DNA from: Escherichia phage DT57C
Length of the DNA stretch: 64,000 bases
Sequence record: NC_027356.1
Direction: 5' to 3' (one strand)
In this document: piece after piece, positions 49,472 through 54,969 of the stretch
Layout: each line of letters begins with the position of its first letter
Position numbering within the stretch: the stretch's first letter is position 1
Position numbers and translations under genes: made by a program
The notes under the pieces: model-generated
What the model was told of the DNA's origin: nothing
Database searches by the model: none
Seen by the model: the letters and a program-made list of their open reading frames with translations, nothing else

Positions 49472-52400
49472 TTAAGAATTTCCTAGTGTTTTTAGGCTAG
49501 CACCATTTTCATTCAGAGCTAATTCTACTGCATCCCTCAGAGCACCGCTATTACTAGAGGCGAACTCTCTAAAACTAGCAGCATCCATAGCACTAATATT
49601 CAGGATGATAGGTCTTCCTGCGGTTGAATTAGAGGAATTTTTTAACTCATCATTAGGTGTAGCTTTCATAGGAACCATAGGTGTAACTACTTCTGTACCG
49701 TGTTCTCCCATCTGATAGCTAACCCCTGGGTACATATTACCACCTTCGGCACGCGGAACAAAGGAGTTAGCATTACCAATACCTTTATCACCACGCACAT
49801 AAGATAGTTCTCCAGCATTAGCAGACATAGATACATCAATGTTCTTCTGACGCTCTCCAAGAGTTAAATAACTAGCGGTATCAGCTCCAGAATCCCCTAT
49901 ACTAGACATGCCAGAGGCAGAAGATGCTTGAGCAAGCGCTAAGGCACCTGCTAAACCTGCCGCTATCATCAGAGGAATAGAGAACGGGTATGGTACAGCT
50001 GTTGCTGCCTGCATAACTGCTACTGCGGTTTGGATGATAATCTGTTTCTTAGCTGCGTCTTGTTGAATCTTCAGCTTTTCAGCTTCCAGTTTCTTCAGTT
50101 TAGCTTTAGATGCCTCAGATTTACCATCACGTTTCTGTTCAGCGGCAATAGCCTGATCAATTGCACTAACCTGCTGACTAGTACTATACTGAATCATGGA
50201 AGCCACAGTCTGCATACCAACTGCAATAGTAGAAGTGGTATCTAGAGATCCCTGGGAGAACTGAATCATAGCATTGGCTAAGTTACCCATACTTTGTGCT
50301 ACCGCAGTTGCTTCGGAGTTTAGCTCGGACAGCTTAGAGATTGCTTGGTCATAAGAAGCCAATTGATTTCCCATATCTGCAAATTTCTTATCTTCTCCAG
50401 ATAACCCAGTAGTAGGGGTGTATACAGCACCTAAAGAAGATCCAACAGAAGATTGCATTTGAGCATTACGTTGTGCTGTTAAAGCAGACATTTGAGCCCT
50501 TGTCTTGGCTATTTCAGCATTCCAGCGCATCTGCTCATTAGCATTATCTTTAGTAAGCTCCTTCATCTGAGTATAAAAATCTAGCTGCATTTCCATTTTC
50601 TGCATTTCCCCAGCCAGAGGGAACATGGAAGTTAGTGTATTTTCAAAGGCTTCTTGCCTTTTGCTGGTCATTTCAGCTTGCTGATCTTGGTGGAATTTCC
50701 AGATTTCACGCTCTATCTGTGCTTGAGCACGCCTAGATTGTTCAGCCTCTTTTTGTTTATCTGCCTGTTTTGTGTACCACTCATATTTTTCCTTTTCAAT
50801 AGTCAGCTCTAGATTTAACTGCGCCAGACGATACTGAGTATCAGTCATAGTACGGTTATTCAAGAGAGCAATCTCACGATCAACACCAAGAATCTTATCT
50901 GTATAATCCTTGACCTTCTTCTGAGCTTCCATTCCCTGGTTAGTGAGTTTAATTTTCTCCAGCTGAATTTTTTCAATTTCTCTCTCAACAGCTTTATTCC
51001 CCTGGTTTGTTTGAAGAACACGGCGTAAAGCAGCTTCTTGCTCTTCTAACTGTTGGAGTTCTAAACGCCTACCAGCTTCCTGTGCCTTTTCTTTATCCTT
51101 AGTTTGATTATATACATCAGCTATCTTCTGTTGAACTGCTAACTGATTTTTAGTTTCATTACCAGTTAGTTTAACATACTCAGATAGAGCCTGAGATGCA
51201 GTTTTCATTTCAGACAGGGTGTTATAACCCAGGTTAAGGTTTTTAACATACTCATCGGCACTCTTACCAGTGCCTAAGGATAGAGATTCTATATTTTTTA
51301 TAGCATCTGCTAGTGTAGCACTAGTTTTAGCAGCGGTATCTGTATTCTGAGCAACGTTCTGTATATCATTAGCTAGGTCACTAGCAGTTTTCTTAGTCTG
51401 ATTATATGCTTTTTGTTGTTCAGTTAGTCCTTTTAATACAGTAGAGTTAAAATCGTATACAGCACCAGGATCAGTAGTATCCCTCTGTAGATTAATTTGT
51501 TTTTGGAATTCTGGATTAGCTTTTGCAGCAGCAGCACCTGCAGCTTGATAAGCTGACTTCCAAGCATTAAGGTTCTCGGTGGAATCAGTAACTTCTTTAT
51601 CCAAGCGTGCTACTTGTAGTCCCATAGCGGCAGTTTCTTCTACAAACTTTTTATTGGCTTCAGAAGCACCCGCGGTTGCAAGACCAGCAGGAATACCCTC
51701 ACCAACTTGACGTATAGCTAGTTTTGTATAGAAATCTGCTTGCTCCATTCGTTTATCAAATTCGGATTTTAGCTTATTACGCTTATCAAGAGATTCCTTA
51801 TACATATCTAAGGCTTTATTGTACCCCTCTTCAGAGGCAGATAGACTTAAAGCAACAGCACCAACGTTGGTAGGATCTATCTGTTTATTAGTTTGTTCTT
51901 GCGCCCTAGCTGCTTCAGCAGATATAGAAGCCTGAGAAGTATAAAATACTGTGTTGATAGCATCAATTACTGGCCCTAAGTACTTAGCAGCAGCTTGTTG
52001 TATTGTTCTTAGTGCAGCATCTGCGTTAGCAGCAAACTGCTCCCACGGAGTAGCGCGCAGAACTTCATCTAGATACCCAAAACGTTTAGTAGACTCTGCT
52101 ATAACAGCATTGGCATACGCTTGCTGTTTCTGGAAGGTAGTAAGGCTATTAATATTATATGTTATACCTGTGTTTGCAGCATTTAACTGTTTAACGTAAT
52201 CAGCATAAGCATCATTAAGACGGATAGTAACACCAAGTTCATCCAGAAGTTCGATTTCCTGTTTAGATACACCCTTAATTACACGGTTAAGTGCATCAGT
52301 CATATCAACGCCAAGAACAGCAGCAGCACGACGAGCTACTAGACCAAACTTATTAAGTTGTTCAGCATCAAAACCGTATGCAGAAGCAGAGGATGCTTGT

Positions 52401-53155
52401 CTCATAGCTTCTTCAAAGGAAATAGCGTACCCGGCTGCTTCTTGTAGTGATCTAGCAAGGGACTGAACAGGAGTACCTGTCTGAGTACCTACTATAACAC
52501 CAAATTCTTCTAGACGATTTAGCTGGTCACCTAGTTTAAGTTGTTCGAATGCAGATTGCAAAACGAAGATGTTAGAAGCAATAGCAGCGTACAGAAGAGG
52601 TAAACCACCACCAACTTTAGCCATTGCAGCAAAATCACGAGTTGCACCGCGTGCTGAACCAGAAGTATTACCAATAGCTCTAGAAGCTCTACCAGCGGCA
52701 CCAGCAGTATCATTAAAACCTCTAGCTGTACCACCTAAAACTCTATTGGTATCGTACAATCTATCTTGAACTTTCTCTGTCGCAGCTGCAACATCATTAC
52801 CCATTACTTTAACAGACCTAGATACTCCATCAAATCCAGCCTCTAGTTTGTCTGCTACTTCAATCATTGCAATAGATAGATCATCCAGCTTAGCACCTAT
52901 ACTATCAATAGATTTAGTGATACCAGCCATACCCCTACTAGCCTGCATTTTAGTAAGACTTTTTGCTGCTCTATCTGCTGCCCTCTCAATGGAGTATAGA
53001 GTTTTGGGCATTTTACCTAGCTGTTCATTTGTCAGTTCGGAAGCAGCAGCAGCATTTTCTAATGCATCAGATACGTTTTCAATAGACTTTGCAGTACGGG
53101 TTGCCCCCTTCTGTTTAACGTCTATTAGTAATTCTCGTATTAGCTTATCAGTCAT
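49472..53155 (-). CDS. tail tape measure protein (pb2-like)
   Basis: 1227 aa, long alpha-helical/coiled-coil, Ala/Gln-rich, hydrophobic segment near C-terminal third. Confidence 0.85.
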   Translation of the reverse strand: MTDKLIRELLIDVKQKGATRTAKSIENVSDALENAAAASELTNEQLGKMPKTLYSIERAADRAAKSLTKMQASRGMAGITKSIDSIGAKLDDLSIAMIEVADKLEAGFDGVSRSVKVMGNDVAAATEKVQDRLYDTNRVLGGTARGFNDTAGAAGRASRAIGNTSGSARGATRDFAAMAKVGGGLPLLYAAIASNIFVLQSAFEQLKLGDQLNRLEEFGVIVGTQTGTPVQSLARSLQEAAGYAISFEEAMRQASSASAYGFDAEQLNKFGLVARRAAAVLGVDMTDALNRVIKGVSKQEIELLDELGVTIRLNDAYADYVKQLNAANTGITYNINSLTTFQKQQAYANAVIAESTKRFGYLDEVLRATPWEQFAANADAALRTIQQAAAKYLGPVIDAINTVFYTSQASISAEAARAQEQTNKQIDPTNVGAVALSLSASEEGYNKALDMYKESLDKRNKLKSEFDKRMEQADFYTKLAIRQVGEGIPAGLATAGASEANKKFVEETAAMGLQVARLDKEVTDSTENLNAWKSAYQAAGAAAAKANPEFQKQINLQRDTTDPGAVYDFNSTVLKGLTEQQKAYNQTKKTASDLANDIQNVAQNTDTAAKTSATLADAIKNIESLSLGTGKSADEYVKNLNLGYNTLSEMKTASQALSEYVKLTGNETKNQLAVQQKIADVYNQTKDKEKAQEAGRRLELQQLEEQEAALRRVLQTNQGNKAVEREIEKIQLEKIKLTNQGMEAQKKVKDYTDKILGVDREIALLNNRTMTDTQYRLAQLNLELTIEKEKYEWYTKQADKQKEAEQSRRAQAQIEREIWKFHQDQQAEMTSKRQEAFENTLTSMFPLAGEMQKMEMQLDFYTQMKELTKDNANEQMRWNAEIAKTRAQMSALTAQRNAQMQSSVGSSLGAVYTPTTGLSGEDKKFADMGNQLASYDQAISKLSELNSEATAVAQSMGNLANAMIQFSQGSLDTTSTIAVGMQTVASMIQYSTSQQVSAIDQAIAAEQKRDGKSEASKAKLKKLEAEKLKIQQDAAKKQIIIQTAVAVMQAATAVPYPFSIPLMIAAGLAGALALAQASSASGMSSIGDSGADTASYLTLGERQKNIDVSMSANAGELSYVRGDKGIGNANSFVPRAEGGNMYPGVSYQMGEHGTEVVTPMVPMKATPNDELKNSSNSTAGRPIILNISAMDAASFREFASSNSGALRDAVELALNENGASLKTLGNS

Positions 53156-53164
53156 AATTTATTT

Positions 53165-53205
53165 TTCCCAATAAAAAAGGCTCTGGGCATATCACCCAGA
53201 GCCAA
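53165..53205 (-). terminator. rho-independent terminator immediately upstream of the tape measure start
   Basis: 9-bp stem ggctctggg-tgatatg-cccagagcc followed by UUUUUAUU on the minus strand. Confidence 0.5.
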
Positions 53206-53239
53206 GCCTCATCGTGGAACGCCCCATTGGAGGAAACTT

Positions 53240-53731
53240 TTACCGTGCTCGAGATTTGGCATGTGGCTTAACGTTAGGTATTCTACCGTTTTGCGGCTTA
53301 TGCTTCTCAGCACGTTTACGTGCAGCGTCTACAGCTTTAGCATCAAATATATTGATAATGTGTAGAACAAATTCTTTTTCTATAGGATCGGTAATCCCAT
53401 AAATATCGAATAAAACACCTAAAGCAGCTTTGTCTTTGCCTATAAATATAGGAAAGTCACCCGGTATGAAACAGTCAACTAGACTGTTATAGATATTCAT
53501 ACTAATAGCTACAATAGGTGGAAAGTCTTCAAGTTCAACAGGCATAGCCTTAGGATCAGGTTCTATACCCATTGACTCACAAAGTATTAAATATTGTTGT
53601 TTAGTCATTTTAGATGCTGAGCTTTTAATACACTTATCTGCAAAATCAGCAACAGCATCTAGTAGTTCTTTACGCTTTTGAGCTACGAAAAGTATCGAGG
53701 TGGAACACTGTCTGGTTGATCCAAGAATCAA
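53240..53731 (-). CDS. tail assembly chaperone, frameshift-extension ORF (T-like); probably not independently initiated
   Basis: +1-frame ORF overlapping the last ~60 nt of the upstream chaperone ORF; no RBS-associated start. Confidence 0.35.
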   Translation of the reverse strand: MILGSTRQCSTSILFVAQKRKELLDAVADFADKCIKSSASKMTKQQYLILCESMGIEPDPKAMPVELEDFPPIVAISMNIYNSLVDCFIPGDFPIFIGKDKAALGVLFDIYGITDPIEKEFVLHIINIFDAKAVDAARKRAEKHKPQNGRIPNVKPHAKSRAR

Positions 53732-54074
53732 ACGCAGCAGAGTTCTGCATAAGCATTACAGCATTATCACGACTAAAGGGAACTTCAGTAGTAGGATCAG
53801 CATCTGTTTCAATCAGCATCAGCTTTTCAACGTCGCCTACAGTCAAACCAGTCCAACCTTTAATTGCAGCATCAACGAAAGCTTCAATAAACTTATCGTC
53901 ATCCTGTACTTGAATTAGGGTACCATTAACCCATTCATCACGTTTGGCAGAAGAGATAACACGCTTAGAAGTAGCACGAGACATATAGTTAAGCTCTAGC
54001 TTAAAGTTTGGCATACCTGGGTATGAAAGAGTAACAGTACGGGTATCAAGAGTAATATCTTTTAAGTTAATCAT
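53670..54074 (-). CDS. tail assembly chaperone (G-like)
   Basis: 134 aa between tail tube and tape measure genes; ATG at 54074 with GGAG RBS. Confidence 0.5.
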   Translation of the reverse strand: MINLKDITLDTRTVTLSYPGMPNFKLELNYMSRATSKRVISSAKRDEWVNGTLIQVQDDDKFIEAFVDAAIKGWTGLTVGDVEKLMLIETDADPTTEVPFSRDNAVMLMQNSAAFDSWINQTVFHLDTFRSSKA

Positions 54075-54969
54075 TTTTAATTTCTCCAAAGAAATCTATT
54101 CTCACAGGGTCTGAAGAAGCAGTAGGTATAATATCCCACTCAACTTTATACACATCTGAGAAATTTAGGCGTTTTGAAATACGTGCTAAAGGAAAATCTA
54201 TAGAAATATTATTATTTCTTATATTTAAAGGTACATCGGTTTCTGGTTCAATATTGTAAACCATATCTCCAGCAAAACGTTTTAAGTAGTATAGGGAAAT
54301 GGTTGCTGAAGCATTCATTTCATTTACATAGGCTCTTTTATTATTATAGATTTTATTTATATCAAAAACACTCTTATCTTCTCTCCAGGAGCATTGCTGT
54401 TGAAAAGATAAAGAAGCGGAAATAAGACCAGGTAAAATGTTACCATTAGTAGAAACTATTACCGGGCTATAGGACATTGCTTCACCCTGTATAATAGAAG
54501 CTGCTTCTCTATATGTAGATACTTCGGAAAATTTCCCTGATTCGATACCAACGTTAAGAATTGGTATATTCTTATCCAAAGAAAAATCTACAGTAGATAC
54601 ATAGCAGTTCTCAAAATATACACAGTTATTATCTTTATTTACTATATAGATATTAAACATAATAGGTTCAATATTGTTACTATATAGTGGTAGTAAGAAA
54701 GTATTACCTTTTCTATCAAAACCTAGCCATTCAAAAAAGTTAGCTTCAGTAAGTGTATTACTAAAATTTATTGCTAGAGAGATAGAAGAAGGAGTTTGAG
54801 CATTTATAACAGAGTCTGCATAGTTAGTTCTACGATGAATAGTCCTACGAAGAGTCTTAAATTCTTCGTAGGAGGTTTGTACATCGTAGTTTGATAGGGC
54901 ATCAAAATGAAATGCCCTACCATCATACTCAACTATAACCTTTGACTCTCGCATTAGAGAGTAGTACAT
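54067..54969 (-). CDS. hypothetical tail protein (300 aa)
   Basis: ORF in the tail module with GGTGA RBS. Confidence 0.5.
   Translation of the reverse strand: MYYSLMRESKVIVEYDGRAFHFDALSNYDVQTSYEEFKTLRRTIHRRTNYADSVINAQTPSSISLAINFSNTLTEANFFEWLGFDRKGNTFLLPLYSNNIEPIMFNIYIVNKDNNCVYFENCYVSTVDFSLDKNIPILNVGIESGKFSEVSTYREAASIIQGEAMSYSPVIVSTNGNILPGLISASLSFQQQCSWREDKSVFDINKIYNNKRAYVNEMNASATISLYYLKRFAGDMVYNIEPETDVPLNIRNNNISIDFPLARISKRLNFSDVYKVEWDIIPTASSDPVRIDFFGEIKND

Follow-up and report, generated by a model that had tools for sequence, protein, structure and literature searches.

A probable +1 frameshift site, UUU_CGU, in the tail assembly chaperone genes of Escherichia phage DT57C and other T5-like phages

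Directly before the tape-measure gene of Escherichia phage DT57C lie two overlapping open reading frames (ORFs), here called ORF1 and ORF2, which look like a pair of tail assembly chaperone genes. They were analysed within a window of 64,000 nucleotides (nt) of the phage sequence (NC_027356.1), the window being the whole stretch under study, and the question addressed here is how the second frame comes to be translated. All genes of the chaperone locus are on the minus strand; positions given in descending order follow the direction of reading. The gene order is tail tube (pb6-like), p140-like, ORF1, ORF2 and tape measure (pb2-like), and it is the same in every annotated relative. The 981 bases around the locus are 99.7% identical to those of Escherichia phage DT571/2 (Demerecviridae, Tequintavirus, T5-like), and more than 440 phage records match the same bases at 80% identity or higher.

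ORF1, the short and putatively G-like chaperone gene, occupies 53670..54074 on the minus strand and encodes 134 amino acids (aa) from the ATG at 54074 to a TAA at 53672-53670. The longest mechanical reading begins at a TTG (54089-53670, 139 aa), but the credible start is the ATG, which is preceded at a distance of 9 nt by the Shine-Dalgarno sequence GGAG (54084..54087, minus strand). ORF2 as listed starts from a TTG and runs over 53731-53240, giving 163 aa. Its frame relative to ORF1 is +1 (equivalently -2), as 54074 - 53731 = 343 = 3 x 114 + 1, and a frame scan shows that the +1 frame is open straight through the ORF1 stop, with 171 codons and a stop (53240..53755, minus strand). The overlap amounts to 62 nt between the listed ORFs and to 86 nt when the +1 frame is counted from 53755. 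The initial annotation of this DNA had described the same two ORFs directly before the tape measure, with an overlap of about 60 nt and a possible fusion of about 280 aa; the coordinates were confirmed, and the fusion was computed at 277 aa.

The initial annotation had also held that ORF2 has neither a ribosome-binding site nor a credible start, and this was borne out by the duplex energies with the anti-Shine-Dalgarno 3' end of 16S rRNA. Two starts were considered, the TTG at 53731 and an internal ATG (53606..53608, minus strand), from which a separate 122-aa gene begins in most records. No Shine-Dalgarno sequence was found at either of them, the energies being +0.2 kcal/mol at the TTG and -0.1 kcal/mol at the ATG. 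For comparison, ORF1 has a value of -6.4 kcal/mol, and 27 long minus-strand ORFs have a median of -5.6 kcal/mol.

The proposal that the pair follows the G / G-T chaperone arrangement is upheld by gene position and by protein family. ORF1 matches phrog_313 (E = 4e-34) and ORF2 matches phrog_3914 (E = 2e-56), both of which are families labelled 'tail assembly chaperone'. Within the single 258-position profile of phrog_313, ORF1 aligns at positions 12-141 and ORF2 at positions 170-258, so that the two are colinear and the profile describes a two-part protein. These matches, together with an arrangement that recurs in every relative examined, indicate that the overlapping pair is not due to chance. 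The homologue of ORF1 in NC_047749 is annotated as a tail assembly chaperone (T5.143 homologue). Other searches were less informative: Pfam gave no match for the window proteins and only sub-threshold matches to Phage_TAC_5 and TAC_4 for relatives, a PDB profile search returned nothing meaningful, and an AlphaFold single-sequence model of ORF1 was unusable, with a predicted local distance difference test (pLDDT) score of 35. The predicted fusion had no scoring match in a collection of 5.8 billion proteins, though an exact look-up there found a cluster of 117 near-identical members, discussed below.

Comparison of the overlap across T5-like phages, which had been suggested as a check, covered 13 lineages of Demerecviridae: Tequintavirus, Epseptimavirus, Sugarlandvirus, Serratia phage Kamaji, Novosibvirus, Vipunavirus, Thalassavirus, Vibrio phage 234P1, Jesfedecavirus, Eos, Priunavirus, Myunavirus and Enterobacter phage KKP_3711. 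Identity of the ORF1 protein to that of the window falls as low as 28-35% in this set. In all 13, the downstream ORF lies in the +1 frame and continues unbroken over the ORF1 stop, and an in-frame TTT_CGN stands near the end of ORF1, with CGT in 11 lineages and CGA in two. The first codon is never TTC and the second never AGR. TTT_CGN is the sole element that is invariant in all 13, and it falls inside every overlap, the +1 frame opening only shortly 5' of it. In the window it forms part of ACU_UUU_CGU, in frame 0 of ORF1 (53685..53693, minus strand), and in Sugarlandvirus ACC TTT CGT stands at the expected place. The slip that the initial annotation had thought conceivable at this very site thus gains support from sequence comparison, short of proof.

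The codon before the motif, which would occupy the ribosomal exit (E) site, varies (ACU, ACC, UCA, AAC, GGG, UCU, UCC and ACG). Including the 3-nt stop, the overlap is 26 nt in most T5-like phages, 17 nt in Vibrio phage pVp-1 and 14 nt in Pectobacterium phage My1 and Vibrio phage 234P1. In these last two, ORF1 ends as GAC TCC TTT CGT TAA and AAC AAC TTT CGT TAA respectively, with only 11 overlapping bases before the stop, and the intersection of the short overlaps leaves NNN_TTT_CGT as the only possible shift site. Beyond the Phe-Arg pair, the frame-0 tail of ORF1 consists of 0 to 12 unrelated and unconserved residues, whereas the +1-frame sequence is conserved. Aeromonas phage AhSzq-1 was left out of the lineage set because its frames are broken: in this record, described as a 'partial genome' (NC_047949 90217-93238), the chaperone region is unannotated and fragmented into short frames, pointing to sequencing errors or pseudogenisation.

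Substitution patterns among 29 distinct close relatives place the change of frame at the same point. Upstream of the TTT, variable sites are distributed over codon positions 3/1/2 of frame 0 as 88/26/4. The 21 nt from the TTT to the stop contain a single variable site where about 6 were expected, and this site is synonymous in the +1 frame (GCT/GCC) while exchanging Ser and Pro in frame 0 (TCA/CCA). The next 61 nt, from the ORF1 stop to the annotated ATG, hold no start codon; their distribution in the +1 frame is 15/5/1, and that of the rest of ORF2 is 73/18/12. Codon periodicity therefore belongs to frame 0 up to the motif and to the +1 frame from there on, including the stretch upstream of ATG 53608. 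The segment between the motif and this ATG (53686-53609) would read VAQKRKELLDAVADFADKCIKSSASK if translated in the +1 frame.

These patterns bear directly on the idea that no frameshift occurs and that ORF2 is a separate 122-aa gene initiated at ATG 53608, possibly coupled to the termination of ORF1 62 nt upstream. This is how the gene is annotated in T5, DT571/2 and most other records, the Met at this position is kept in many relatives, and a passage of a 2018 paper calls T5 and Sugarland phages without a predicted frameshift signal, citing Zivanovic et al., 2014 (PMC6256483). However, the ATG has the near-zero duplex energy given above (-0.1 kcal/mol) and no Shine-Dalgarno sequence, and +1 coding periodicity and protein conservation extend for about 25 codons on its 5' side, where there is no start codon. 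In six lineages, moreover, Ile, Val or Phe stands in place of the Met (Klebsiella, Serratia, Eos, KKP_3711 and Vibrio relatives), and a conserved hairpin ends just before the ATG. Homologues with canonical -1 heptamers at the equivalent junction, described below, also speak against a separate gene, and we regard this explanation as highly unlikely.

The hairpin in question has 9 base pairs (bp), with arms at 53661-53653 (UAGAUGCUG) and 53619-53611 (CAGCAUCUA) (53611..53661, minus strand; z = -1.85). It starts 8 nt past the ORF1 stop and ends 2 nt 5' of the internal ATG. The arms pair in all 17 distinct T5-like sequences of the alignment, where UA has once been replaced by CG, a compensatory change, and once by UG. 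Synonymous positions are frozen within the arms and variable next to them; in one relative beyond this alignment, a T to G change produces an A-G mismatch. The hairpin is not conserved in the distant lineages. Possible roles would be to hide the internal ATG or to make terminating ribosomes pause. As a classical frameshift stimulator it was rejected, since it lies 26 nt downstream of the UUU, too far for the messenger RNA entrance of the ribosome, and is found in the T5 group only.

A second explanation accepts the frameshift but places it later, at UCA_AAA_GCG. The end of ORF1 reads AAA GCG TAA (53678-53670), as the initial annotation had pointed out; the sequence is present, but it does not hold as a signal for the family, since it is conserved only in T5 and the Epseptimavirus group. 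A shift there could be -2 (AAA then AAG, giving ...FRSSKKRKELL) or +1 by slippage of the lysine transfer RNA (tRNA-Lys) from AAA to AAG (...FRSSKRKELL). The tRNA-Lys is slippery on runs of A, and YCA AAA GCG TAA is invariant within T5 and the Epseptimavirus group. Moreover, the sole joined coding sequence (CDS) that was found fits the -2 version exactly: in Salmonella phage Shivani (YP_009194776.1), the same two genes, at 96% DNA identity, are annotated as one 'tail assembly chaperone' of 277 aa, with a -2 shift at AAA/AAG as the junction (...SSKKRKELL), at a site unconserved beyond that group. It is this record that belongs to the cluster of 117 proteins, and among the 15 members listed the other 14 are separate products of 110 or 122 aa.

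Yet the AAA_G site is missing from 11 of the 13 lineages. Klebsiella phages have AAA TCG and Serratia AAG TCG at this place, and the site is altogether absent from Proteus, all Vibrio lineages, My1, Eos, PSTCR5 and KKP_3711. In My1 and 234P1, ORF1 stops straight after the CGT, before any AAA_G could be reached. The conservation of the site in T5-like phages is explained by the dual coding of the 21 nt, and the variable site on its 5' side (TCA/CCA) is synonymous in the +1 frame only. A shift at UCA_AAA_GCG thus seems to us improbable as well, if a shade less so than a separate gene.

With the shift placed at UUU_CGU, it could be asked whether the motif merely reflects codon bias. Codon context was counted over the long ORFs of the window on both strands (16,040 codons). 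Here UUU is avoided before a pyrimidine: TTT_Y occurs 59 times against 155 for TTC_Y, while TTT_R occurs 291 times against 122 for TTC_R (Fisher p = 6e-25). Only 5 of the 28 Phe-Arg pairs in these ORFs are TTT_CGN. Given this avoidance and this background, thirteen occurrences of TTT_CGN in a row are not a matter of codon bias. The avoidance of UUU_Y itself resembles what selection across the genome against chance +1 slips would produce.

A further line of evidence comes from metagenomic homologues in IMG/VR, with 34-43% identity and in some cases on contigs of 100-104 kb, in which the second ORF lies in the -1 frame. Where the window encodes residues 127-129, they have -1 heptamers at the equivalent codons, either CTG GGA AAC (G_GGA_AAC) or GMA AAT TTT (A_AAU_UUU). 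When 14 representative fusions were built, each by its own rule (+1 or -1), they aligned without a gap across the junction, and a downstream block, (M)TKEQYLxMCEQLGxEPDP...DFP, is common to all of them. Among the homologues with G_GGA_AAC, the codon for Phe is sometimes TTC and sometimes TTT, and it is followed by Ser in place of Arg; TTT and CGN are thus held constant only in lineages that require a +1 shift. Judged from their sequences, the -1 relatives provide strong evidence that the family makes a fusion and that TTT_CGN is its +1 signal. The contigs with -1 heptamers may represent undescribed T5-like lineages from environmental samples.

On these grounds we consider it likely that the ORF pair is the T5-family equivalent of lambda G / G-T and that a fusion of 277 aa is made by slippage of the phenylalanine tRNA (tRNA-Phe) from UUU to UUC. 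In the mechanism that we infer, most ribosomes would reach the stop of ORF1 and release the 134-aa chaperone, whereas a minority would slip forward by one base with UUU (53690-53688) in the peptidyl (P) site and CGU in the aminoacyl (A) site. The anticodon of tRNA-Phe is GAA, and it would re-pair perfectly from UUU to the overlapping UUC (53689-53687). Translation would then continue in the +1 frame with GUA (53686-53684), GCU, CAA and so on to the stop at 53242-53240. The putative T-like segment, read only after the shift, comprises 148 codons and this TAA (53240..53686, minus strand), and its recognition draws on phrog_3914, phrog_313 and the gap-free alignment. The product would thus consist of 129 + 148 = 277 aa with the junction ...HLDTF-VAQKRKELL..., and its predicted tryptic junction peptide is DNAVMLMQNSAAFDSWINQTVFHLDTFVAQK. 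By analogy with lambda, the N-terminal part shared by the short and long products would coat pb2, the tape-measure protein; recruitment of the tail-tube protein would fall to the C-terminal part of the fusion, and neither product would enter virions.

Several other ways of changing frame at this place were considered and rejected. The window overlap contains no canonical -1 heptamer of the form X_XXY_YYZ, and the frame relation is +1. A -2 slip at the UUU motif would require codons (CUU, ACU, CAU, CCU, GGU and others) that vary between lineages and are non-cognate for tRNA-Phe. A +1 signal of the type found in prfB (RF2) was likewise dismissed, as there is no purine-rich, Shine-Dalgarno-like element upstream (the sequences 5' of the motif are CAC CTC GAT, TTG ATA GAC, GAT ATC GGT and others, depending on the lineage) and the A-site codon is CGN, not a stop. 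Alternatively, the frame could change in the RNA, if RNA polymerase slipped on the T run and deleted a base in some transcripts. Such slippage normally needs about 7-9 identical bases; the run in the window (CTTTTC) is four T, and it is only three in most lineages (AAC TTT CGN, GGG TTT CGT). Some phage and bacterial genes are known to reach the same result at the protein level in this way (PMC5009743), but the process would leave the invariant CG unexplained, and we consider it extremely improbable here.

Some observations do weigh against a ribosomal shift at UUU_CGU, beginning with the published statement on T5 and Sugarland mentioned above. No protein evidence for the fusion in any T5-like phage was found in the literature reached. 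No stimulator is conserved across the lineages, there being neither a Shine-Dalgarno-like sequence upstream nor a structure at a fixed distance downstream. CGU is the commonest Arg codon in the long ORFs of the window (339 of 705), so the slow or rare A-site codon invoked for the +1 shift of influenza virus PA-X is not a transferable rationale and does not account for the need for CG. Phe129 is also kept in relatives where it lies outside the slip site, and the conservation of TTT thus partly reflects the protein. The Met of the internal ATG, as noted, is kept in many relatives, and minor independent initiation of ORF2 may take place beside the frameshift. As for the stimulator, lambda G-T is not known to have an obvious structured one. 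PA-X likewise works from a minimal cassette without an obvious structured stimulator (PMC5009743). A low-efficiency shift from the motif alone is therefore plausible.

The genes on either side of the pair are those expected from annotated relatives and the ORF list. Upstream lies the minor tail / baseplate tail tube gene, a p140 homologue of 300 aa (54067..54969, minus strand), whose stop overlaps the start of ORF1 within 54067-54074 (ATGATTAA), the TAA lying 2 nt beyond the ATG. This stop-start overlap suggests that translation of the chaperone is coupled to that of the tail gene before it. Downstream lies the gene that encodes the tape-measure protein, a pb2 homologue of 1227 aa (49472..53155, minus strand) and the presumed client of the chaperone pair; in the window, 84 nt (53156-53239) part the ORF2 stop from its ATG. 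In T5 (NC_005859), the endonuclease gene T5.141 (record 95777-96529), which is not in the window, stands between the chaperone pair and pb2, and in phage IrisVonRoten a putative homing endonuclease adjoins the chaperone locus as well. Mobile nucleases seem to favour the chaperone / tape-measure junction as a place of insertion. Structure prediction also placed a terminator-like hairpin between the chaperone pair and the tape-measure gene (53179..53203, minus strand; 11 bp, 7 of them GC, with a T run), and the T5 annotation has a rho-independent terminator at the corresponding place, just 3' of T5.142. It presumably sits inside one late operon and may attenuate tape-measure expression relative to that of the tail tube. 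No tRNA genes were found within the window.

As far as sequence comparison can tell, the UUU_CGU motif is most likely a tail-chaperone recoding site, ordinary in its role (G/G-T), unusual in its mechanism (+1 at UUU_CGU) and almost never annotated. Full-text literature searches for frameshifting in Tequintavirus and Demerecviridae found no description of a UUU_CGU site in T5-like phages. Should the shift be real, T5, a model siphophage, would obey the G/G-T rule after all. Hundreds of records that show a free-standing 110- or 122-aa 'chaperone' from an internal Met would then be mis-annotated, and Shivani, the sole fusion record, would have its junction in the wrong place. The locus would furthermore provide a bacterial, genetically tractable case of the UUU_CGN motif of influenza PA-X and plant viruses, one in which the common codon CGU challenges the 'rare A-site codon' explanation. 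Within a single protein family, a change between -1 and +1 shifting at the same codon would point to selection on the fusion ratio, not on the mechanism. A broader proposal, to which we give about an even chance, is that UUU_CGN is a ribosome-intrinsic +1 signal in bacteria, eukaryotes and probably archaea, independent of codon rarity, which the Demerecviridae recruited for G-T, and that the direction of the shift was flipped from or to -1 heptamers at the same codon within the family.

Among known systems, the closest in role is the chaperone pair of phage lambda. As in lambda, two overlapping ORFs lie directly before the tape-measure gene, the second lacks a start signal, and no stimulatory RNA structure is evident; by analogy, an abundant short product and a rare, C-terminally extended one would share a common N-terminus. 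The lambda heptamer is G_GGA_AAG, and the G_GGA_AAC of the distant homologues is close to it. Unlike in lambda, the shift would be +1 and not -1, with a single tRNA slipping on UUU_C in place of a tandem slip on X_XXY_YYZ, and no Pfam match of the proteins to lambda-type chaperones was detectable. The lambda G / G-T frameshift is known from several studies (Levin 1993; Xu, Hendrix and Duda 2004, 2013, 2014, as summarised in PMC5009743).

In its motif, the site is closest to a class of +1 signals in eukaryotic viruses. The influenza PA-X site, UCC_UUU_CGU, has been proven by mass spectrometry (PMC3498833), UUU_CGN has been proposed as the +1 motif of amalgaviruses (PMC5052127), and the same class is found in fijiviruses and chronic bee paralysis virus (PMC3498833, PMC5052127). 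The core motif, the frame arrangement and the predicted slip of tRNA-Phe from UUU to UUC are identical, and My1 even has the full UCC_UUU_CGU. Conservation across divergent relatives and the lack of an obvious downstream structure are further points in common. The hosts of PA-X and the amalgaviruses, however, are eukaryotic, CGN is rare in them and slow decoding has been invoked, whereas DT57C infects a bacterium and, in the window, uses CGU more than any other Arg codon; the E-site codon, unlike in the PA-X class, is not conserved in Demerecviridae.

Within bacteria, +1 frameshifting at UUU_Y was reportedly described by Schwartz and Curran in 1997. Cases include E. coli argI and reporters, Yersinia YopN-TyeA and a rhizobial activator of an integrative and conjugative element (PMC5009743). 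They share with DT57C the host translation machinery and the shift-prone tetranucleotide, and they work without an adjacent stop codon. They are, however, error-level events or regulatory fusions, not tail chaperones, and a fixed CG is not among their described requirements. Finally, TTT-CGC has been proposed, as a prediction only, for the tail chaperone pair of the HF1 group of haloarchaeal myoviruses (PMC7230728). That group differs from the T5 family in its archaeal hosts and its myovirus type, and rare codons were invoked there; the likeness between the two lies in the motif and in the gene pair that it would join.

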